Below the pieces are notes generated by a model. That model was not told the DNA's origin. It did no database searches and saw only the letters and a program-made list of their open reading frames with translations. Shown in pieces: positions 21,172 to 64,000 of a DNA stretch of 64,000 nucleotides. Location of the stretch: NCBI GenBank assembly GCA_041740795.1, contig JBGSLH010000016.1, positions 3,431 through 67,430 on the forward strand, written 5' to 3'. Origin of the DNA: Minisyncoccia bacterium (GTDB lineage: Bacteria > Patescibacteriota > Minisyncoccia > Phycocordibacterales > JAACPR01). The number at the start of each line of letters is the position of its first letter. Position 1 is the first letter of the stretch. The position numbers were made by a program, and so were the translations under genes.

Positions 21172-21636
21172 ATGATTCAAATTGGATTTTTAACCATCGA
21201 TGTAATTATTTTATTAGTCATCTTCTGTTTTACTTTTTTTATAGCTTTCAAAAAAAGTAAAAAAAGTGTGGCACGTTTTGTGCTTCCGTTCTACGTCACA
21301 ACTTTGATCTATACAACTCTTCCGTTCAAGGCAACAGAAGCATCTGCAAAAATAATGTTGTTTCTCGTAACATACACTATCTTGGTATTCCTCATGAAAA
21401 AATCAATCACTGCCGTTGGGGGAATTACAGGAGGAAGACATTTTCTTGACTCGATCCTTCTCAGCTTTGCAGCGATTTTTTCACTTTTCATTGCATACTA
21501 CAAGATCCTTCCCCTTGAGAAGATCATTAAGATCAATTTTCCTTTTAGTGCACTCATTCTCGAAAATGTTCCGTATTATGCGTTAATCAGTATTCCACTT
21601 GTATTGATATATATCTCAAACGCACATCGAGACTAG
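21172..21636 (+). CDS. Hypothetical multi-pass membrane protein
   Basis: 154-aa ORF with four hydrophobic helices. Confidence 0.55.
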   Translation: MIQIGFLTIDVIILLVIFCFTFFIAFKKSKKSVARFVLPFYVTTLIYTTLPFKATEASAKIMLFLVTYTILVFLMKKSITAVGGITGGRHFLDSILLSFAAIFSLFIAYYKILPLEKIIKINFPFSALILENVPYYALISIPLVLIYISNAHRD

Positions 21637-21812
21637 GTGGAGATATTTCTAAACGAGTCATTCTGCAGACCTGTTCAAAACTTAAAAAACCTGCGAAATG
21701 ATTCTTCCAAGGGACCCGCCGGTTACGACACCCAGCTGTCAGAATCATTTCGCAGGTTTTTCTTTGTTTTGTTAGGTCGAAGCCGATGAGAGAAGAACAT
21801 ATCTCCACCTAG
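21633..21812. repeat. Long-hairpin intergenic element, copy 1 (apex inverted)
   Basis: The outer stem 21633-21646 pairs with 21799-21812. A perfect 21-bp inner stem 21685-21705/21741-21761 encloses a 35-nt loop. That loop carries the reverse complement (23/25) of the 25-mer found at 49608 and 60447. The flank blocks ATTCTGC and GTTTTGTTAGGTCGAAGCC are shared with the other two copies. Confidence 0.85.
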
Positions 21813-21849
21813 TCTCTGTGCACCTTACCTTGTTGCATATTTTTGACAG

Positions 21850-22055
21850 AGAGTTACGATTGAAAATGGATATGACCTCCCACAGAAACGACAGTAGCGG
21901 AGCTTCATCACAGGAAGCTGAAACGGAAGAAGGATTCAATTCCTCACACACCAAGCGAAGGAAGCAAGCCTTCCTGAACTGCAGGAAGTATCGAGGGCGC
22001 AAGTCTCGCAAGCCGCGAGGCAGACACCTCGTCACACGTTGAGATTCACTCGTTC
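21850..22055 (+). ncRNA. Candidate structured RNA or leader upstream of trpS (unclassified)
   Basis: Locally GC-rich: about 58% in 21941-22040 by hand count. It has several local hairpins (AGCTTC/GAAGCT, AGGAAG/CTTCCT, CGAG..CTCG) with GCAA/GCGA loops, and it ends in a strong terminator. Confidence 0.3.
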
Positions 22056-22090
22056 AAATGCCCGGCAACCTTCGGTTGCCGGGCATTTTT
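22056..22090 (+). terminator. Strong intrinsic terminator 30 nt before trpS
   Basis: AAATGCCCGGCAACC-TTCG-GGTTGCCGGGCATTTTT. Confidence 0.85.
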
Positions 22091-22121
22091 ATTTATTCAT
22101 CTCTTTTGTTATACTGTCCCC

Positions 22122-36048: not shown

Positions 36049-37371
36049 ATGAAAGAGATTACGCACTATACTGCCATCGTCATCGGTGGAGGAGCATCTG
36101 GCATGATGACTGCAGGACAAATTGTCGCACACAATCCGGATGCGACTGTTTTGATTATTGAAAAGAACAAGCGTCTTGGGGAAAAACTTTCAATTACAGG
36201 AGGAGGAAGATGCAATATTACGAACGCCACTTTTGATGACAAGATTCTACTCAAGAATTACGGAGTTGCGGAAAAATTTCTATACTCTGCTTTTGACCAG
36301 TTCGGGATACAAGATACAATTAATTTTTTTGAAAAAAGAAACCTTCCCATTGTCATACAAGCCAACAATCGAGCTTTTCCAAAAAGTGAGAAAGCAATTG
36401 ACGTAACGAACGTCATGCAAAAATTCTGTACACACCCTGATATTAAGATCCTGACAAATACTGTTGTTACAAAAATCAATACGGGGTGTCATCCCGCACT
36501 TGATGCGGGATCTCAGGATAAAACAACGAGATCCCGGAATGAATCCGGGATGACATTAATCACTAATATAGAAATACAAAAAGGGGAGAGGTACACTGCC
36601 GATTCTTATATATTGGCTACAGGAGGACTCTCCCATCCCGAAACCGGTTCAACTGGAGACGGCTTCAAGTGGCTGACGGATCTTGGGCACAACGTCAAAC
36701 AACCGACTCCGACACTTGTACCTTGGATCGTTTCTGATTCGTGGATTCATGCACATGCTGGTACGGCGCTCGATGATGCAAAAATCATTGTATCTGTTGA
36801 TGGTAAAAAATATATTTCATGTACAGGACGGATACTTTGTACCCACACTGGACTGTCTGGTCCACTCATTTTGAATAATTCATCTAAGCTTCAGGATGCA
36901 CTCCTGAGCGGAGTCGTAACTGGAACACTAGATCTCTACCCACAACTTAATCACAAAGAAATTGATCAGGTTATTTTGAATATTTTTGAAAAAAACAAGA
37001 ATAAGAAGTTCAGGAACGTCATTGATGAGATTACACGATTACACTCAGGATTTTTAATATTGCAAAAACACCTACCACTTGATTTTGACATTCCCGTACA
37101 CTCAGTATCAAAAGAATACCGCAAGTCACTCACACAGCTTCTCAAAAGCATTCCACTTTTTATCAGAGGGCTTGAGGGTTATGAGAAGTCCGTAGTAGCT
37201 GACGGAGGGATCAGTCTCACCGAAGTTGATACCAAGACTATGCGATCCAAGAAGATTTCAAATCTTTTTATAACAGGTGACCTTCTCGATATCAGACGCC
37301 CGTCAGGAGGATATTCCTTGCAGCTCTGTTGGACTACAGGGTTCGTGGCAGGCACACACTGCCTTTCATAA
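36049..37371 (+). CDS. HI0933/YhiN-family FAD-dependent oxidoreductase with an in-frame repeat insertion
   Basis: IVIGGGASGMM dinucleotide fold, ITGGGRCN, ILATGGLSHPETGSTGDGF, and a C-terminal GGYSLQLCWTTG. Confidence 0.85.
   Translation: MKEITHYTAIVIGGGASGMMTAGQIVAHNPDATVLIIEKNKRLGEKLSITGGGRCNITNATFDDKILLKNYGVAEKFLYSAFDQFGIQDTINFFEKRNLPIVIQANNRAFPKSEKAIDVTNVMQKFCTHPDIKILTNTVVTKINTGCHPALDAGSQDKTTRSRNESGMTLITNIEIQKGERYTADSYILATGGLSHPETGSTGDGFKWLTDLGHNVKQPTPTLVPWIVSDSWIHAHAGTALDDAKIIVSVDGKKYISCTGRILCTHTGLSGPLILNNSSKLQDALLSGVVTGTLDLYPQLNHKEIDQVILNIFEKNKNKKFRNVIDEITRLHSGFLILQKHLPLDFDIPVHSVSKEYRKSLTQLLKSIPLFIRGLEGYEKSVVADGGISLTEVDTKTMRSKKISNLFITGDLLDIRRPSGGYSLQLCWTTGFVAGTHCLS
36488..36554. repeat. 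Full double-hairpin copy of the GTCATCCCGCA palindromic element, inside a coding sequence
   Basis: GTCATCCCGCActtgaTGCGGGATCTC ... GAGATCCCGGAatgaaTCCGGGATGAC. It is translated in frame as CHPALDAGSQDKTTRSRNESGMT. Confidence 0.85.
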
Positions 37372-37383
37372 TTTAAAAAGAAA

Positions 37384-37410
37384 AAGGACGGCGCATTGCA
37401 TGCACCGTCC
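37384..37410 (-). terminator. Intrinsic terminator (minus-strand sense)
   Basis: AGGACGG...CCGTCCT hairpin. The T-run (TTTTTCTTTTT) is present only on the minus strand. Confidence 0.6.
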
Positions 37411-37474
37411 TCAAAAATTAAGTTAGTCTTCATCAACTCACTTAAGTGGTTCAAAAAACGTACCATCCTCATTA

Positions 37475-37630
37475 TCAATATTCATCAATAGGATCCTCTA
37501 TTACATCGCCCCTCTCGAGTTTACAATAAAGAGCCTTGCAACCTAAATAGATCAAAAGAATGATAAAGACTATCGGGATGAGCAATATAGTACAGGCGGG
37601 AGCTTCAGCAAAAAAAGGTATTGTTTTCAT
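37475..37630 (-). CDS. Small hypothetical membrane protein (51 aa, below the ORF-track cutoff)
   Basis: My own translation is MKTIPFFAEAPACTILLIPIVFIILLIYLGCKALYCKLERGDVIEDPIDEY. It has one TM helix, and a minus-strand terminator lies about 65 nt downstream. Confidence 0.35.
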   Translation of the reverse strand: MKTIPFFAEAPACTILLIPIVFIILLIYLGCKALYCKLERGDVIEDPIDEY

Positions 37631-38099
37631 TATTTTCGAATATGTAGTAAAGGTTCATGACTACTGCTACTATATCTAATTTTTTAAAATAGGGAAGAGA
37701 GTCCCCTATTTCAGGGGAGAAAAATGAGAGGCTCAAAACTGCCCGAATTTAAATTTAAAAATAAAAAAGGAGATAAGGCTCGAGTCAGATTCCAAGAGAT
37801 CCCGATAGAGGAGAGTATAAGATAAATTAATAGGTGCATTTTAAAACCGATCGAGATTCGAGTTTGATGAATTGATTTAAAAGCCTGATTTAGATATAAA
37901 GTGTCGCAAATAAACATTGTGCGACACACTGTGTATCCTATACACTAGATAGGCACAAGCCTTAAATTCTTGTTTTATTAGTATGTACTTAGAAATAATA
38001 TAAAGATATTTTTATTTGAATAATCTCTTTAAGATGTTTGAGGGATACTTGAATCCATATAAAAAGTTAATTACCTCATAAAGGAAGCTGGAGGTTAAG

Positions 38100-38309
38100 C
38101 TAGGATTTTCTTTTTTCCTTTATCAAAAACTTCACATGTTCTTTGACCATTGGATGCAATTCTTGCCTAAATGTAACAAGCAGAGCCTCCTTCCAATTAG
38201 TCATGCCACTTTCGTACGCATCTTTAATATTTATGTAAATATTCTCCGCTTCTTTCTGCATTGTAATAGTCTCCTGTGTTCCCTGTCTCATATCAATATA
38301 TCTTACCAT
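38100..38309 (-). CDS. Hypothetical protein
   Basis: 69-aa ORF downstream of the 38360..38920 ORF. No motif. Confidence 0.35.
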   Translation of the reverse strand: MVRYIDMRQGTQETITMQKEAENIYINIKDAYESGMTNWKEALLVTFRQELHPMVKEHVKFLIKEKRKS

Positions 38310-38359
38310 TAAAATTAAAAAGTGCCCTTGAAGTTATCGCGGGCACCATTGGGATTGAG

Positions 38360-40061: not shown

Positions 40062-40334
40062 ATGTCTAAAGTTAAAGCCGGTGGAACATCAAAAAACCTG
40101 ACTGACTCTGCACCTAAGTTTTTGGGTGTCAAAATCGCTGATGGTCAGACAGCAAAAGCTGGCGCAATCATCATAAGACAACGTGGAACACGTTATCTTG
40201 CTGGTCCAAATACAGATCTCGGAAAAGACCACACTATCTTTGCACTTAAAGCAGGTGTGGTTAAATTTTCAAATAAAAGAAAGGTTCGATTCGACGGCAA
40301 GCCGGTCGTTCGAAAGTTGGTACAGATCGTATAA
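40062..40334 (+). CDS. rpmA: 50S ribosomal protein L27
   Basis: KAGGTSKNLTDSAPKFLGVKIADGQ...IIIRQRGTRYLAGPN. Confidence 0.93.
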   Translation: MSKVKAGGTSKNLTDSAPKFLGVKIADGQTAKAGAIIIRQRGTRYLAGPNTDLGKDHTIFALKAGVVKFSNKRKVRFDGKPVVRKLVQIV

Positions 40335-40344
40335 TTTCCAAAAT

Positions 40345-40374
40345 AAAAGGTGCGCCCTTCGGGCGCACCTTTTA
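40345..40374. terminator. Bidirectional terminator between rpmA and rplI
   Basis: AAAAGGTGCGCCCTTCGGGCGCACCTTTT. Confidence 0.85.
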
Positions 40375-40390
40375 TTTTGGATAATATACT

Positions 40391-46551: not shown

Positions 46552-46591
46552 CAGAGGTCAGTAGCTTTTAGCTATTAGCTATTGGCTAAAG

Positions 46592-46626
46592 AAAAAGGAG
46601 CGGACCCTTCGGGTCTGCTCCTTTTT
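46592..46626. terminator. Bidirectional terminator between recR and rplU
   Basis: AAAAAGGAGCGGACCCTTCGGGTCTGCTCCTTTTT. Confidence 0.85.
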
Positions 46627-46648
46627 CTCCAGGTTCAAATCACTAATG

Positions 46649-49072: not shown

Positions 49073-49525
49073 ATGAGCATTATTGAACAAATCAAATCAG
49101 ACATGAAAGACGCAATGCGAGCCAAGGATGCATCAGCTCTCACAGCAATCCGAGGCCTTCTCTCTGCCTTTACAAATGAACTTGTAGCTATCGGAAGGAC
49201 TCCCCAGGACACACTCTCTGACGACGAGACTCTTGTCGTAATTAAACGTGCATCAAAACAGCGCAAGGATGCGATCGAACAGTTCGAAAAAGGCGGACGT
49301 CCAGAACTTGCAGAAGGTGAAAAACTCGAACTTGCCGTTATTGAAAAATATCTACCAGCGATGATGAGTATTGATAAGATAAAAGTAATTGCAGAAGCAA
49401 AGATTACGGACTTCGGTGGCGACAAAACAAAACTAGGACAGATTATCGGCGCAGTACTCAAAGAAACAGCAGGGCAAGCCGATGGCGGAGACGTGAAGAA
49501 GGTCGTGACTGAATTATTGAGTTAA
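49073..49525 (+). CDS. GatB/YqeY domain protein
   Basis: IKSDMKDAMRAKD, VIKRASKQRKDAIEQF, VIEKYLP. Confidence 0.85.
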   Translation: MSIIEQIKSDMKDAMRAKDASALTAIRGLLSAFTNELVAIGRTPQDTLSDDETLVVIKRASKQRKDAIEQFEKGGRPELAEGEKLELAVIEKYLPAMMSIDKIKVIAEAKITDFGGDKTKLGQIIGAVLKETAGQADGGDVKKVVTELLS

Positions 49526-49527
49526 AA

Positions 49528-49711
49528 CTGGCAGAAGAGGTGTGAGGTCGGAACGATTCTGCAAACTTCTTCAAAACACGAAAAATCCTGGAAATAAATT
49601 CTGACAACTGGGTGCCGTAATCGGCGGGTCCCGGGAGGAATTTATTTCCAGGATTTTTCTATGTTTTATTAAGTCGAAGCCTAAGTGTAGGCCCCGTATC
49701 TCATCTGCCAG
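49528..49711. repeat. Long-hairpin intergenic element, copy 2
   Basis: It fills the whole gap between convergent stop codons. The outer stem is CTGGCAGA../..TCTGCCAG. A perfect 22-bp inner stem 49580-49601/49638-49659 encloses the apex 25-mer CTGGGTGCCGTAATCGGCGGGTCCC at 49608-49632. Confidence 0.85.
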
Positions 49712-49712
49712 T

Positions 49713-50486
49713 TTATACCCTCTTCAACTCAAGACACATGAACATCGGAAATTCCTTGCGAGCAGCATTCTCTGCTTCAGCTCGAGGCCCTGGTTGACTG
49801 ACCTTGTGAGAAATCCATTCTTCAATCTTCGTGATCGCAAAATTATGTTTTGCAAATACTTTAGAATATACCTGAAGTGGCCTATGGAAAGACGATGTTA
49901 TTTGCTTATCTGTTTTTTGTCCAGGATTCATGTCGATTGAAATTTCTTTCTCACTCATATATAGATCCATAACTTTGGATTGAGTTTTTTTCTTTTCGTT
50001 GTATATCCAGTCTCCATACTGTGGAATTCTGAATGCAGGATGGTTGAGCACGAGATAGATTCTTCCCTTCGGTGCAAGGAGTCGTGAGAGATTTGAAACC
50101 ACGAGATTTAAATGCTTCATGTTCTGGATCGCAAGCACGATTGTAATGACGTCAAATGTTTGTCCTCTTAGTATCACAGAGTCTTCTGCACTACCTACAG
50201 TATATGAAATTTCCTTATGATTTTTTTGAGCAATGGCGATGAGTTCCTTTCCAATATCGACTCCTGTCAGTTTTTTGGAAAAAGGAAGGAATTTTTCGAG
50301 CACAAACCCTTGTCCACATCCAAGCTCAAGAAGCGACTGATCTTTTTTGAGATCGACAAGCCGAATGAGATTAGGTAGCACAACTTGTGCATGGTATGTA
50401 TCATCTTCCTTGAGATGTGCGTCATACCAACTAGCCACCTTCCCCCATCCTGTTCCCTGTTGTTTTTTAGCATTATCTTTTTGCAT
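49713..50486 (-). CDS. Class I SAM-dependent methyltransferase
   Basis: LLELGCGQGFVLEKF (motif I) and FDVITIVLAIQNM. Confidence 0.8.
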   Translation of the reverse strand: MQKDNAKKQQGTGWGKVASWYDAHLKEDDTYHAQVVLPNLIRLVDLKKDQSLLELGCGQGFVLEKFLPFSKKLTGVDIGKELIAIAQKNHKEISYTVGSAEDSVILRGQTFDVITIVLAIQNMKHLNLVVSNLSRLLAPKGRIYLVLNHPAFRIPQYGDWIYNEKKKTQSKVMDLYMSEKEISIDMNPGQKTDKQITSSFHRPLQVYSKVFAKHNFAITKIEEWISHKVSQPGPRAEAENAARKEFPMFMCLELKRV

Positions 50487-51129: not shown

Positions 51130-51384
51130 ATGTCAGAAATTACCTTCGACGAAGACAAGACATTTCAACAATCTCTGGAACCAGAAACAATAATACCCAA
51201 AAAGGGTTTTGAAGGTTGGTTTTTTAAAAAATTTCCGGGAGGTTATTTATTTAAAAAATCCCTTTTATACGGACTGGTGATTGTACTTTTTTGCATTGCC
51301 CTGTTTTTTATCGCACTTGGAAGATTCAATATCCAAACGGAAAAATTAAAGTTTCAGGATCGTGTTAATAACACTCAGTCATGA
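51130..51384 (+). CDS. Small hypothetical membrane protein
   Basis: 84-aa ORF with a TM helix LLYGLVIVLFCIALFFIAL. Its stop overlaps the next start (ATGA). Confidence 0.5.
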   Translation: MSEITFDEDKTFQQSLEPETIIPKKGFEGWFFKKFPGGYLFKKSLLYGLVIVLFCIALFFIALGRFNIQTEKLKFQDRVNNTQS

Positions 51385-52064
51385 GAACAAAACACTCTCG
51401 CGCCTTTACTCTCATAGAGCTTCTCCTTGTGGCAGGTGTCATTTCAATACTAATGAGTGTTATTTTCTTCAGGGTAACTGAGGCCAAAAAAAAGGCTGAG
51501 GACGCACACATGGTCGCAGAGACAGCTCAAGTGAGCCGTGCAATCTATCAATACAAAGAGGACAACGGTGGTTTTGTTCCTCGAAGCCTAACGGTTACCT
51601 CAGGGACTATTCTAGAAAGGAATCCAGGAGAAGCAGGCCCTAATCAAGACTATGTTGAAGCATTTGAACCTCTCGTAACAGGAGGGTATCTACCATCAAT
51701 TCCGTACAGTCCTTCTGGTGAGGACTATGCATACATACTTGGTACAGACGGGATGAGCGCAGTTTTTGCAGCTGACTTAAATTATCAAAAATCAAATAGT
51801 TCCGCCTCAAATTCTTGTCCAATGAACCAGGCTACGTCTACGCAAGTCGACATGTCTTCTTGCACAACTGGAAAAACTTTTATGAGAAACGGGTTTAGTT
51901 TTTTCTTTGGAGACACACCATCCTGTCAAGCTGCGTTATATGACAGGACTACCCATACATGCTTTGAATACGAATATCCCACTCCTTGTCAAGTTTGTCC
52001 TATTGTTCAAGCCAATCTAATCTGTGACGGATCAAGCAACAGCGACTACTGTTCCTGTCTGTAA
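51381..52064 (+). CDS. Type IV pilin-like protein with a Cys-rich C-terminus
   Basis: Prepilin-type N-terminus MRTKHSRAFTLIELLLVAGVISIL. There are 9 cysteines in the last ~85 residues. Confidence 0.75.
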   Translation: MRTKHSRAFTLIELLLVAGVISILMSVIFFRVTEAKKKAEDAHMVAETAQVSRAIYQYKEDNGGFVPRSLTVTSGTILERNPGEAGPNQDYVEAFEPLVTGGYLPSIPYSPSGEDYAYILGTDGMSAVFAADLNYQKSNSSASNSCPMNQATSTQVDMSSCTTGKTFMRNGFSFFFGDTPSCQAALYDRTTHTCFEYEYPTPCQVCPIVQANLICDGSSNSDYCSCL

Positions 52065-53170: not shown

Positions 53171-53779
53171 TTATTCAATAGGTAAACAATAATCACCAGT
53201 ACGCTCTACAAATTCTTCAGGTTCAGCTATCCCATCTCCATCATCATATGTCAAAGTTGCCATTTTTGGTAAATTTAAATTAATACTAAAATCACTAAGA
53301 ATAATCCAAAAAAACGCTTTATTCGCTCCACCAGCGCAAAGATAATAAGGGAAATCACCCTCGGCTAAAATCTCATAAACAAAATCAACATCGCCTAATC
53401 CACCAGAATACATCTTAAAACCAGCAGGCAATGCTTTTTTATCCATAAGCTCTGTAATGAAAGGAAGTTCTTGCGTCAAACTAGGATCAGGTCCTGATCC
53501 ATTATTTGCATATGTTATTCCAGCATTGTTAACCGTTATAATATCATACATACCCCCCTCATTCTCAAACGGATACTTCCCCTCATTTGTTCTGTATATC
53601 TCTAGTGCGGTTCTGACACTGAGTATCGCCTGCTCTAAAGCCGTCTTCTGTGCCCGCATACGTGCCTCCGCCATACTCGCCAACACCACACTCGATAGCA
53701 AAGTAATGATAGAGATCACGACTAACAATTCGATGAGAGTGAACCCTTCTTGCCATTTTTGTTTGATTTTAGATTTCAT
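53171..53779 (-). CDS. Type IV pilin-like protein
   Basis: Prepilin N-terminus KQKWQEGFTLIELLVVISIITLLSSVVLA. Confidence 0.78.
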   Translation of the reverse strand: MKSKIKQKWQEGFTLIELLVVISIITLLSSVVLASMAEARMRAQKTALEQAILSVRTALEIYRTNEGKYPFENEGGMYDIITVNNAGITYANNGSGPDPSLTQELPFITELMDKKALPAGFKMYSGGLGDVDFVYEILAEGDFPYYLCAGGANKAFFWIILSDFSINLNLPKMATLTYDDGDGIAEPEEFVERTGDYCLPIE

Positions 53780-59797: not shown

Positions 59798-60232
59798 TTA
59801 GATGGCTCCAATTTGTCCGAGTTTTTCTGCGATCGAGTCTGCATTTTTTGAAACTTGTGAGTTAAAGGCGTCCCATGCAGTCTCGTCCCAGATTTCAACC
59901 CTGTTATAGATTCCCGCAAAGACAACTTTTGTTTTGATCTTTGCAAATGAGCACAAATTTTCTGGAATAAGAATGCGACCAACTGAGTCGATAGCAACTT
60001 CATGGGCGCTTGCCAGCAAAAACCTGTTGAAGTTACGTGCATCTGATTGAGTAAAACTAAGTCCCCCAAGCTGTGCCGCGATCTTATTCCAATCCTTAAG
60101 TGGGTACATTGAAAGGCAGTTATCAAGACCCTTTGTTATTACGACTTTCTTACCCAAACCTTCTCGAAACTTACTCGGAATTGATATTCGTTTTTTTTCG
60201 TCCAGTGTGTGTTTGAATTCGCCGATTAACAT
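59798..60232 (-). CDS. mraZ: Transcriptional regulator MraZ
   Basis: MLIGEFKHTLDEKKRISIPSKFR and a second SpoVT-AbrB repeat GRILIPENL. The track starts at a GTG at 60250, but the ATG at 60232 fits the family. Confidence 0.9.
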   Translation of the reverse strand: MLIGEFKHTLDEKKRISIPSKFREGLGKKVVITKGLDNCLSMYPLKDWNKIAAQLGGLSFTQSDARNFNRFLLASAHEVAIDSVGRILIPENLCSFAKIKTKVVFAGIYNRVEIWDETAWDAFNSQVSKNADSIAEKLGQIGAI

Positions 60233-60246
60233 GTTTTCTTGATTTA

Positions 60247-60283
60247 CCACTTCATCCCACTTATATACTATTCTACACCACTT
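60247..60283 (-). promoter_or_regulatory. Putative MraZ operator (three direct AAGTGG repeats)
   Basis: On the minus strand, AAGTGG occurs at 60283-60278, 60262-60257 and 60252-60247. Spacings are 21 and 10 nt, immediately upstream of mraZ. Confidence 0.55.
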
Positions 60284-60381: not shown

Positions 60382-60555
60382 AGAAGTCCTGATTGAATCA
60401 TTCTGCCAATCTAAAAAATATAGAAAAAGCTCAAAAGTTTTGACAGCTGGGTGCCGTAATCGGCGGGTCCCCTGGATAAAACTTTTGAGCTTTTTCTATA
60501 TTTTGTTAGGCCGAAGCTGATGAAGAAAAAATTTCCTCCAGCTTACGCAACTTCT
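60382..60555. repeat. Long-hairpin intergenic element, copy 3
   Basis: A perfect 27-bp inner stem 60415-60441/60478-60504 encloses the apex 25-mer at 60447-60471, which is identical to copy 2. The flank blocks ATTCTGC (60400) and ATTTTGTTAGGCCGAAGC (60500) are present. The outer stem AGAAGT/ACTTCT overlaps the lysS stop. Confidence 0.85.
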
Positions 60556-62566: not shown

Positions 62567-62577
62567 GATAGACAAAC

Positions 62578-62688
62578 GTCATCCCGCACGAGCCCGCCTG
62601 CGACGAGTGAAGATGCGGGATCTCGTCATCAGATCACGAGATCCCGCAACTGTGTACCTCCTTGCGGAGGCACTTCGTGCGGGATGAC
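62578..62688. repeat. Full-length (111 nt) copy of the GTCATCCCGCA palindromic element
   Basis: GTCATCCCGCA-[25 nt]-TGCGGGATCTCGT-catcagatc-ACGAGATCCCGCA-[29 nt]-TGCGGGATGAC. It ends 1 nt from the mrdA stop codon. Confidence 0.85.
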
Positions 62689-62689
62689 A

Positions 62690-64000
62690 TTACTTCAGAT
62701 ATTCAGGAGTATAGATCGCCATCCAATCAAACAGCTTGCGAGACACAGCGACTCCTCCGATCATATTGTACCGGCTCCCCTTTTCCATAATTATTACGAA
62801 CGCATACCGTGGATTCTCGTACGGAAAAAATCCAGTCGTCCATGAGTTCACATTATCCTTACTCACACCCAACTCAGCTGTTCCTGTTTTGACAGCAATA
62901 TGCACCGCATCCATATTAAGTCCCTTACCAGTTCCTGTGACCACACCCTCTCTCATCCCCTCCTGGATTATTCCCCAGATATCGGGCCGGATTCCTTCGA
63001 CCTTGAGTGCAACGTCTGGCTTTGAATCCTTGATCAGCAGGGGGTTATAAATAGTGCCTTCATTTGCAATTGAAGCAACTGCCCGCACAAATTGCAATGG
63101 AGTTGCCTGGAATCCGTACTGTCCGATCGATGTAAAATAGGTATCTCCGAGTCTCCAGATATCGTTGTCGAAGTTTTTTGCTTTCCAATCAGGGTTAGGG
63201 ATTGTTCCTTTGTATGAAGAAGAGACCTGACCTTCGACAGGTGCACCAAAACCAAATTTTCTGAAATAAGATTCAAGCTTTGTGATCCCTACTCCAGAAA
63301 TGTCTCCCCATCCTCCCCCGACTTGATAAAAAAAGATGTTCGAAGATACAGCGATAGCAGTTCGGACATCCACAAGACCATGTGCCTTCCAATCCGAAAA
63401 GAATGTTGGCCTGGAAGGATCGTATGGATTAGGGACTTCAAGTTTATTCTTGCTCAAGATTAGTGTTTGTGGAGTAATAACATTCTCGTTGAGTCCTGCA
63501 ATTGCAACATACGGCTTCACAATCGAACCTGGAGTATAGAGTCCTTGTGTAATCCTATTGAGAAATGGGTTGCGCGGATCTTGATTGATCTGTTTGATAT
63601 ATTCAGCATCTCCGTCCGCAAGCTTCTGAGAACTGTAGTCAGGATACGTAGCCAACGCCAATATTTCTCCCGTATGAATATCCATGATCACCCCTCCCCC
63701 TCCTTGGAATGGAACCTGCTCCGAAACCTCTTTGATGGATTTGTACAATTGCTCTTGCACCCGTGCGTCAATAGAGAGAGTTAACGGTTCTCCCGGATCA
63801 GGCAAGCGTACTTCGTTTTCAGATATCGTCTCCCCAAGAGCATTCGTCTCGATAAGTTTTGATCCATTTTTTCCTCCAATGACATTTTCGAATTTTTTCT
63901 CGACTCCTTCTTTTCCTGTATAGCTCAACTCGTAATAGAATCCCTTTGAATCCTTTTTGGGATAGGTGATAAATCCAAGCAAATTAGAAATTCCTTCCAT
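62690..64000 (-). CDS. mrdA: Penicillin-binding protein 2 (MrdA-like transpeptidase), 5' end outside the window
   Basis: SxxK (GSIVKP), SxN (SSNIFF), KTG (VKTGTAE). The ORF runs off the right edge. Confidence 0.85.
   Translation of the reverse strand: MEGISNLLGFITYPKKDSKGFYYELSYTGKEGVEKKFENVIGGKNGSKLIETNALGETISENEVRLPDPGEPLTLSIDARVQEQLYKSIKEVSEQVPFQGGGGVIMDIHTGEILALATYPDYSSQKLADGDAEYIKQINQDPRNPFLNRITQGLYTPGSIVKPYVAIAGLNENVITPQTLILSKNKLEVPNPYDPSRPTFFSDWKAHGLVDVRTAIAVSSNIFFYQVGGGWGDISGVGITKLESYFRKFGFGAPVEGQVSSSYKGTIPNPDWKAKNFDNDIWRLGDTYFTSIGQYGFQATPLQFVRAVASIANEGTIYNPLLIKDSKPDVALKVEGIRPDIWGIIQEGMREGVVTGTGKGLNMDAVHIAVKTGTAELGVSKDNVNSWTTGFFPYENPRYAFVIIMEKGSRYNMIGGVAVSRKLFDWMAIYTPEYLK

Follow-up and report, generated by a model that had tools for sequence, protein, structure and literature searches.

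The REP/BIME/REPIN elements of Proteobacteria are short, GC-rich, imperfect palindromes that lie in intergenic regions just past stop codons, in either orientation. They form mosaics with other small motifs and can act as terminators or as mRNA-stabilising hairpins. Hairpin and terminator structures can themselves be targeted by mobile DNA, as exemplified by IS1397 and ISKpn1, which enter the loops of REP, and by the group IIC introns, which are found at terminators. In the uptake sequences of Neisseria (DUS) and the Pasteurellaceae (USS), the motif forms the stem as inverted pairs, at about one per kb. We know of no description of the repeat family reported here, and none was found in our search of the literature. 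PMC3184786 gives further background on REP and BIME, and PMC1852404 presents DUS and USS as conserved short motifs tied to terminator hairpins downstream of genes. In the mitochondria of yeast, Neurospora and Volvox, GC-rich palindromic clusters are scattered in AT-rich spacers and are regarded as selfish repeats (PMC2670323). Finally, TIGR arrays consist of tandem units with ~9-nt unpaired spacers and box C/D-like flanks, with a Nop-domain tas gene adjacent (PMC12045711).

The stretch of DNA analysed here (the window, 64 kb) carries three long hairpins, at 21633-21812, 49528-49711 and 60382-60555 (copies 1, 2 and 3), as the first-pass annotation had recorded, each forming a rod of 180-190 nt. 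They lie 11-28 kb apart amid housekeeping genes, and the genes next to them are yqeY, a methyltransferase gene, lysS, mraZ and trpS. These elements belong to a real and previously undescribed repeat family that is restricted to a narrow CPR clade. Their parts are an outer stem, a flank module (F) made of a 5′ and a 3′ block, an inner stem, and an apex holding a 25-mer core that belongs to the apex unit (U):

49525..49539, no strand: copy 2, left arm of the outer stem, AAACTGGCAGAAGAG (inverted-repeat pair, 93%); its first base is the last base of the yqeY stop codon (ORF 49073-49525)
49550..49568, plus strand: copy 2, 5′ block of F, GGAACGATTCTGCAAACTT, the CGATT variant, which accompanies AAGTG in the 3′ block
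49580..49601, no strand: copy 2, left arm of the inner stem, an A-run and a short GC segment (terminator-like), then the AT-rich arm of the apex unit
49602..49637, plus strand: copy 2, apex of 36 nt, containing the 25-mer core (49608-49632)
49638..49659, no strand: copy 2, right arm of the inner stem, with a T-run at its end
49663..49687, plus strand: copy 2, 3′ block of F, GTTTTATTAAGTCGAAGCCTAAGTG
49700..49714, no strand: copy 2, right arm of the outer stem, overlapping the stop codon of the methyltransferase gene that converges on it from the minus strand (49713-50486)
21629..21816, plus strand: copy 1, full composite
21629-21646 and 21799-21816: copy 1, outer arms
21655-21672 and 21766-21792: copy 1, 5′ block and 3′ block
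21685-21705 and 21741-21761: copy 1, inner arms
21706-21740: copy 1, apex, with the core at 21711-21735 on the minus strand (2 mismatches)
60382..60555, plus strand: copy 3, full composite between lysS and mraZ
60382-60387 and 60550-60555: copy 3, outer arms, weak
60395-60412 and 60500-60525: copy 3, 5′ block and 3′ block
60415-60441 and 60478-60504: copy 3, inner arms, with the core at 60447-60471 (plus strand)

The ATTCTGC block was found at 21660, 49556 and 60400, as claimed earlier, and the inner arms are indeed perfect, with 21 bp in copy 1, 22 bp in copy 2 and 27 bp in copy 3, separated by spacers of 35-36 nt. The outer arms are perfect over 18 bp in copy 1, match at 93% over 15 bp in copy 2 and amount to only 6 bp in copy 3. 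The fold energies of copies 1, 2 and 3 are -87, -85 and -66 kcal/mol, respectively (z = -11.3, -9.5 and -7.4 against shuffles), and copy 2 is just as stable when folded from its minus strand (z = -9.6). Stop codons adjoin all three elements, in agreement with the earlier observation, and copy 2 fills its convergent gap entirely, as do the elements in the related loci L010, L012 and L079. Indeed, every element adjoins the 3′ end of a gene. Two of the earlier comparisons must be revised. The flank helix ACCT/AGGT, proposed to carry a compensatory change, holds in part, as it is degraded in copy 3 (CAATCT versus AGGCCG). The inner stems had been described as almost completely different, which is not the case, since those of copies 1 and 2 and of several relatives align at ~65-70% identity (estimated by reading the alignments) with compensation on both arms.

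Between copy 1 and trpS there is a spacer of ~300 nt (21817-22121), ended ~34 nt before the trpS start by a plain terminator (22056-22088, AAATGCCCGGCAACC-TTC-GGTTGCCGGGCATTT). This spacer could be a leader, an attenuator or a small RNA, and neither a T-box nor any other Rfam match was found in it.

About 20 copies of the family were found in one Paceibacteria clade. Seventeen copies of the 25-mer lie within 2 mismatches, to which one more with 1 mismatch can be added. The scan of 185,579 species-representative genomes retrieved the 25-mer at 11 loci in three CPR MAGs, a metagenome scan added 2 further loci, and extra copies came from the orthologous loci of relatives (L014 and L079). The amino-acid identity among the hosts is 75-89%, and searches with YqeY and LysS agree on this single clade; the window proteins are ~88% identical to those of MAG GFS_12037 and 75-82% identical to those of the other hosts. 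The MAG CAYOAC01 (L001, L006, L008, L009 and L011) is titled 'Candidatus Saccharibacteria', but it encodes proteins that share 75-89% identity with their counterparts in a Paceibacterota MAG; its taxonomic label looks wrong. Five contigs (L001, L006, L019, L023 and L078) end inside the element, in the apex or the second arm, showing that these palindromes break short-read assemblies and that copy numbers in MAGs are therefore underestimates.

In viral contigs, no match was found to the core, to the half-core with closing bases or to the 5′ block, and a 14-mer gave chance matches only, none of them with the 3′ block; plasmid and phage collections gave no match. The first-pass annotation had been unable to assign the element to a known RNA family, and our Rfam search over the window agrees, finding only a tRNA at the gathering threshold, while permissive scans of four regions returned only generic-hairpin miRNA precursor models, far below threshold. 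A search of the window and 188 kb of loci with a covariance model of the element brought up no further divergent copies and, with filters off, mostly recovered plain terminators. Pfam searches on ten poorly characterised window ORFs revealed no transposase, recombinase, RAYT or integrase. Elsewhere in the window, we observed a run of small ORFs (13.7-17.3 kb), a region of ~0.9 kb (~37400-38350) with no ORF of at least 80 aa and no Rfam match at the gathering threshold, and two proteins with an N-terminal methylation (type IV pilin-like) motif (51381-52064 and 53171-53779).

The 25-mer CTGGGTGCCGTAATCGGCGGGTCCC is present without mismatch at 49608-49632 and 60447-60471, both on the plus strand. 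The third one in the window (21711-21735, minus strand) has 2 substitutions, and 100 shuffles gave 0 matches. This sequence folds as GGG/CCC plus GCCG-TAAT-CGGC. The apex unit U comprises this 25-nt GC-rich mini-hairpin, variable closing bases and short AT-rich arms, and tops a hairpin that otherwise resembles the ordinary terminators of these genomes, with an outer A-run, 4-10 GC-richer bases and a complementary T-run side. In ~18 copies, the 25-mer is identical or 1-2 substitutions off, its unpaired bases being likewise conserved, while the adjoining closing bases and stems vary freely and the neighbouring stems diverge by ~30%. For example, the apices of copy 3 and of the orthologous L004 are identical over 36/36 nt, and the stems there are ~65-70% identical. 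Of three single substitutions in the core helices, two create a G-U pair in the core strand and the third does so in its complement. We found no inverted doublets of the core.

The core has two main closing contexts, GACAG-core-CTGGA and CTGGAGA-core-ACGACAG (e.g., window 60442-60477 versus L008 2341-2379), both bearing the same 5-mers with the sides swapped and without complementation. A single inversion does not work as a link between them, and the context in L003 (TGACAG-core-CTGTCA) looks like the first one corrected to a perfect palindrome.

The flank module F consists of cGAAySATTCTGCAGACCT (5′ block) and AGGTCGAAGCC(GATGAG / TAAGTGAG) (3′ block), which pair with each other as a quasi-palindrome. 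In every copy with both blocks visible, TCATT goes with GATGA and CGATT with AAGTG (AAGCG in L021). The centre of F contains the helices GACCT / AGGTC and AAAAC / GTTTT with an internal loop between them, and a variable hairpin after them. F is positioned at the tip of a locus-specific outer hairpin, and its own tip may be nothing more than a 4-nt loop or may hold a hairpin, either one that bears U or one whose apex is unrelated. In the lysS-mraZ gap, where the elements of L004, L020 and L021 are orthologous to copy 3, F is closed by a CTCT loop alone in L021, surrounds a hairpin with an unrelated 28-nt apex in L020, and surrounds a U-bearing hairpin in copy 3 and L004; F itself is kept in 4/4 genomes examined at this gap (the window, L004, L020 and L021). 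U is found without F in 7 copies (L005, L007-L010, L012 and L013), and a third small element occurs within the 3′ block of F in L004, L006 and L011. The outer stems are locus-specific and frequently bounded by an A-run and a T-run; a proximal motif, (G/A)GATAT, is repeated in several copies, the outer arms being otherwise mostly locus-specific. The modules are therefore separable. The single architecture that had been proposed stands as regards the shared blocks, not as one fixed unit, since the apex unit, the flank module and the outer stems can be separated and inverted relative to each other. Nevertheless, the inner stems of the composite copies are homologous, which indicates that the composites were propagated or inherited whole and did not arise by the entry of U into unrelated terminators.

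Another element of ~100 nt, with the palindromic core CTATTTTGATRAATCAAAATATG, is present in L004 (2090-2190 and 4055-4150). In L004 it is inserted between the mraZ start codon and the promoter region, and window ~60232-60250 is a clean empty site for it (between cttgattt and accacttc). The CTATTTTGATRAATCAAAATATG core is also located inside the 3′ block of F in L004, L006 and L011, with a possible GTCG duplication alongside.

Either module can face either way, whether judged against the other module or against transcription. All three window copies carry their flank blocks on the plus strand, whereas the 25-mer of copy 1 is on the minus strand; the apex of copy 1 is thus inverted relative to its flanks, which had been overlooked previously. 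U and F have the same orientation in 4/10 composites and are inverted in 6/10. At the loci where both neighbour genes are co-directional, U is sense to transcription in 5 cases and antisense in 6, and F is sense in 5 and antisense in 4. In the lysS-mraZ gap, F lies one way in L004 and L020 and the opposite way in copy 3 and L021. Similarly, in the yqeY-methyltransferase gap the core of L022 is reversed with respect to that of L079, although the two loci have clearly homologous stems and share 94% identity in YqeY. These flips of the core and of F between relatives are the expected outcome of recombination between perfect inverted arms, and they are hard to reconcile with an RNA of fixed polarity.

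The modules are also gained and lost at orthologous loci. In the cysS-dnaB gap, a 182-nt composite is present in L014 and absent from the window and L015. The gap 3′ of yqeY holds a composite in the window and U-only hairpins in L012/L022 and L079. In L015 it is occupied by a long, AT-rich hairpin whose apex has diverged and is extended, in L080/L081 by another repeat together with a plain terminator, and in L014, L017 and L018 by plain terminators. Likewise, at the 3′ end of a 727-aa gene, a composite is found in L002 and a small plain terminator in L009. The nearest relatives available (~90-94% protein identity) already carry different occupants at these sites.

A second repeat family, with the terminal inverted repeats GTCATCCCGCAC ... 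GTGCGGGATGAC, is present at window 62575-62691 and 36487-36555, as well as in L002 (4950-5100) and L080 (1830-1865). The copy at 36487-36555 lies inside the ORF of a 440-aa HI0933-like flavoprotein (36049-37371; Pfam match at aa 8-436), and it may therefore be an in-frame insertion, comparable to the Rickettsia palindromic elements. In MAG GFS_12037 (L004 4700-4770), the spot orthologous to window 62575-62691 contains an F/U composite.

The covariation of the stems, previously noted by eye on three copies, is strong. Both sides change in 24/25 inner-stem pairs, and 88.5% of the alignment cells are paired, compared with 67.5% after shuffling and no more than 61% in slid controls. G-U pairs amount to 19/660 on the F(+) strand and 29/686 on the F(-) strand (3-4%), fold energies are alike on both strands, and no strand-specific excess of G-U was found in F or in the core. 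With its stable hairpin, its A-run and T-run flanks and its location directly 3′ of a stop codon, the anatomy of the element has the features predicted for an intrinsic (bidirectional) terminator, bearing out the earlier remark on its runs and position, and the repeats probably function as bidirectional terminators, judging from these sequence features. A simple terminator scanner misses them because of its loop limit of 8 nt.

The ordinary terminators of these genomes had been described as short stems with CTTCGG tips. The tips are as described, whereas the arms are not short, being perfect over 15-21 bp and reaching 29 nt at 93%. Overall, plain terminators have arms of 15-29 nt and loops of 2-5 nt, often CTTCGG; their complementarity runs through the A/T runs, giving arms of up to 29 nt. 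We compared plain bidirectional terminators (window 40329-40389 and 46590-46628; L014 6799-6834; L015 1995-2035 and 8115-8153) at the orthologous convergent gaps rpmA/rplI and recR/rplU, where the GC cores are wholly different, yet perfectly complementary. This pattern suggests genome-wide palindrome perfection or two-strand selection. In addition, the covariance model of the element gives plain terminators 20-29 bits on both strands. The stems of the element evolve by fully compensated Watson-Crick changes, exactly like the local plain terminators. Since plain terminators show the same compensated turnover, variable and perfectly paired stems are a general property of the bidirectional terminators of this clade, and not a special signature of the element.

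Taken together, modularity, invertibility, orientation independence, gain and loss, symmetric pairing and terminator position fit nested palindromic intergenic repeats of the REP/BIME/MITE kind. We therefore consider it probable, if by no means assured, that small palindromic DNA repeats, nested in one another, make up the element, and that they cap bidirectional intrinsic-terminator hairpins in a single Paceibacteria (CPR) clade of genus or family rank. The best reading is that these elements behave as mobile or selfish DNA (REP/BIME/MITE-like), not as an oriented RNA gene. Of the two explanations put forward in the first-pass annotation, palindrome maintenance at the DNA level fits better than selection on an oriented folded RNA, with which the ~50:50 orientation, the rare and equally distributed G-U pairs and the same behaviour of plain terminators do not agree.

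In mechanistic terms, the modules would propagate as DNA and reach hairpin tips by copying or insertion, through structure-targeted transposition or through copy-choice template switching between hairpins, and would flip via recombination between their own perfect inverted arms. The arms may stay Watson-Crick because the terminator RNA is made from both strands, in which case any G-U in one transcript would appear as A-C in the other, and/or because intrastrand template switching corrects quasi-palindromes. At the RNA level, the element would serve simply as a terminator or 3′-end hairpin of the flanking genes, and the near-invariance of the 25-mer might reflect recent spread or sequence-specific recognition by a putative protein. 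Time and again a conserved module occupies the very middle of a hairpin (terminator-like hairpins enclose U, F encloses hairpins and outer hairpins enclose F), which suggests copying or insertion into tips. Among the orthologous gaps compared, none was an empty site that kept the identical stem under a plain loop, and insertion into the tip of a pre-existing hairpin is therefore a step that we infer. We detected no direct target-site duplication; the A(n)T(m) tracts on either side of U do not qualify, as they are reverse complements of each other (L007). Neither a partner gene nor an autonomous element was seen among the ten window ORFs scanned, or in ~240 kb of related DNA searched for split halves of the core as its possible flanks. 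It is possible, if doubtful, that we are dealing with structure-homing miniature mobile DNA, in which modules of 40-60 bp (U and F) would be copied specifically into loops, both those of terminator hairpins and those of one another, building concentric palindromes, the 25-mer acting as the handle for a putative CPR enzyme, with later flip-flop via the perfect arms.

The persistence of F at the lysS-mraZ gap and the near-invariance of the 25-mer could instead reflect a host-level function. The 25-mer would then be a DNA signal used by the host, a binding site for a chromosomal protein presented as the tip of an extrudable palindrome or as a duplex, with the hairpin incidental or aiding presentation, and the roles proposed for it are nucleoid organisation, replication or priming, recombination and DNA uptake. 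In agreement with this, the 25-mer is near-identical in ~18 copies across genomes at 75-89% amino-acid identity with its neighbours free to vary, the conservation extends to its unpaired bases, the apices of copy 3 and L004 match over 36/36 nt with stems at only ~65-70%, and orientation independence is expected of a DNA site. Nevertheless, such a signal, which retains a fair share of the probability, seems rather unlikely given its presence or absence at orthologous gaps with plain terminators as replacements, its low density (3 per 64 kb), the diverged apex of L015 at an orthologous site and the lack of a candidate binding protein; moreover, the 25-mer was found in only 11 stretches from three MAGs out of the 185,579 species genomes scanned, which shows that it is not a general CPR signal. 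For DNA uptake in particular, an idea raised earlier, we found nothing in favour, and a density of 3 per 64 kb lies well short of that of known uptake signals. A structured RNA, either a cis-acting 3′-UTR element or a small RNA gene with functional loops and bulges and stems under RNA-level compensation, would account for the very strong pairing and covariation, the z of -7 to -11, the alternation of conserved unpaired blocks with variable helices, the optional hairpin inside the 3′ block and the constant location beside a gene 3′ end. In contrast, both modules are ~1:1 sense and antisense, the apex is inverted relative to the flank in 6/10 composites and between 94%-identical orthologues, the two strands fold equally well with 3-4% G-U on either, which is low for a selected RNA, the same covariation is seen in plain terminators, and Rfam gives nothing beyond generic hairpin (miRNA-precursor) models, all of which makes an RNA of this kind improbable. 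A hammerhead-like reading of CUGAUGA/GAA in the 3′ block was rejected by eye, as copy 3 alone has CUGAUGA and the order of the elements is wrong.

Two further systems share parts of this anatomy. The centre of F, with its helices GACCT / AGGTC and AAAAC / GTTTT, internal loop and variable hairpin, recalls the integron-type attC sites, hairpins of folded single-stranded DNA that combine two short conserved helices with an unpaired spacer and a terminal structure that varies, and the GTTAGGT of copies 1 and 3 fits GTTRRRY. However, the GTT stands unpaired opposite GTTC rather than paired with AAC, the motif varies among copies (ATTAAGT, GTTATGT, ATTTGGT and GTTTGTC), the copies are dispersed in housekeeping genes 11-28 kb apart with no cassette array, and no integrase is present among the ORFs scanned, so we regard an attC origin as very improbable. 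It is harder still to credit that the elements are guide-RNA precursors, with the variable stems as targeting sequences and the conserved apex and flanks as protein handles, as in TIGR stem-loop arrays, bridge RNAs or pre-miRNAs. Conserved and variable segments do alternate, and TIGR systems, which include stem-loop array variants, have been reported from parasitic bacteria (PMC12045711); nevertheless, our copies are single and dispersed rather than in tandem arrays, their variable parts are fully paired instead of being 9-nt unpaired spacers with box C/D motifs, their orientation to transcription is random, and their variable segments resemble ordinary terminator cores.

The genomes of CPR/Patescibacteria are very small and considered poor in mobile DNA, and the turnover of these nested palindromic repeats between close relatives shows that CPR intergenic DNA is dynamic. 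These elements could pass for structured RNAs because palindrome maintenance mimics RNA covariation, which is a practical caution for covariation-based ncRNA discovery. Hairpin-tip homing, if true, would represent an unusual mode of target selection for non-autonomous elements.

Among the known systems, the likeness to attC is limited to two short helices, an internal loop and a variable terminal structure, since neither R-box pairing nor conservation of GTTRRRY was found and there is no array. The units also differ from those of TIGR arrays, as they are single and dispersed with paired variable parts, next to yqeY, a methyltransferase gene, lysS, mraZ and trpS. Unlike in the DUS/USS, the motif here makes up the loop, has a frequency of about one per 20 kb and is polymorphic among relatives; in terms of uptake-sequence density and conservation, there are 3 copies in 64 kb, and they are absent from the orthologous gaps of relatives. 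The organelle GC clusters belong to another domain of life, have no sequence relation to our elements and are not known to be nested at terminator tips. IS1397, ISKpn1 and the group IIC introns are full-size and encode enzymes, whereas the modules here have 40-60 bp and no coding capacity.

The closest likenesses are to the small non-autonomous and extragenic repeats. As in the bacterial MITEs (Correia/NEMIS, RUP and ERIC), the elements are small, non-coding and dispersed, form long hairpins, can supply terminators and display insertion polymorphism, a feature directly observed here. The MITE features that we did not find are conserved terminal inverted repeats at the outer ends, the outer stems being largely locus-specific, and a direct target-site duplication; the flanking complementarity is inverted, not direct. 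With REP/BIME they share the intergenic GC-rich palindromes after stop codons, in either orientation, mosaic and terminator-capable. In contrast to REP, where the unit forms the stem as an inverted doublet, the conserved unit here lies in the loop of a variable long hairpin; there is no GTAG-type 5′ tetranucleotide, and no RAYT among the ten window ORFs scanned. Finally, the modules of BIME stand side by side, whereas those described here are nested concentrically. This family is best seen as small palindromic intergenic repeats with an unusual concentric and invertible architecture.
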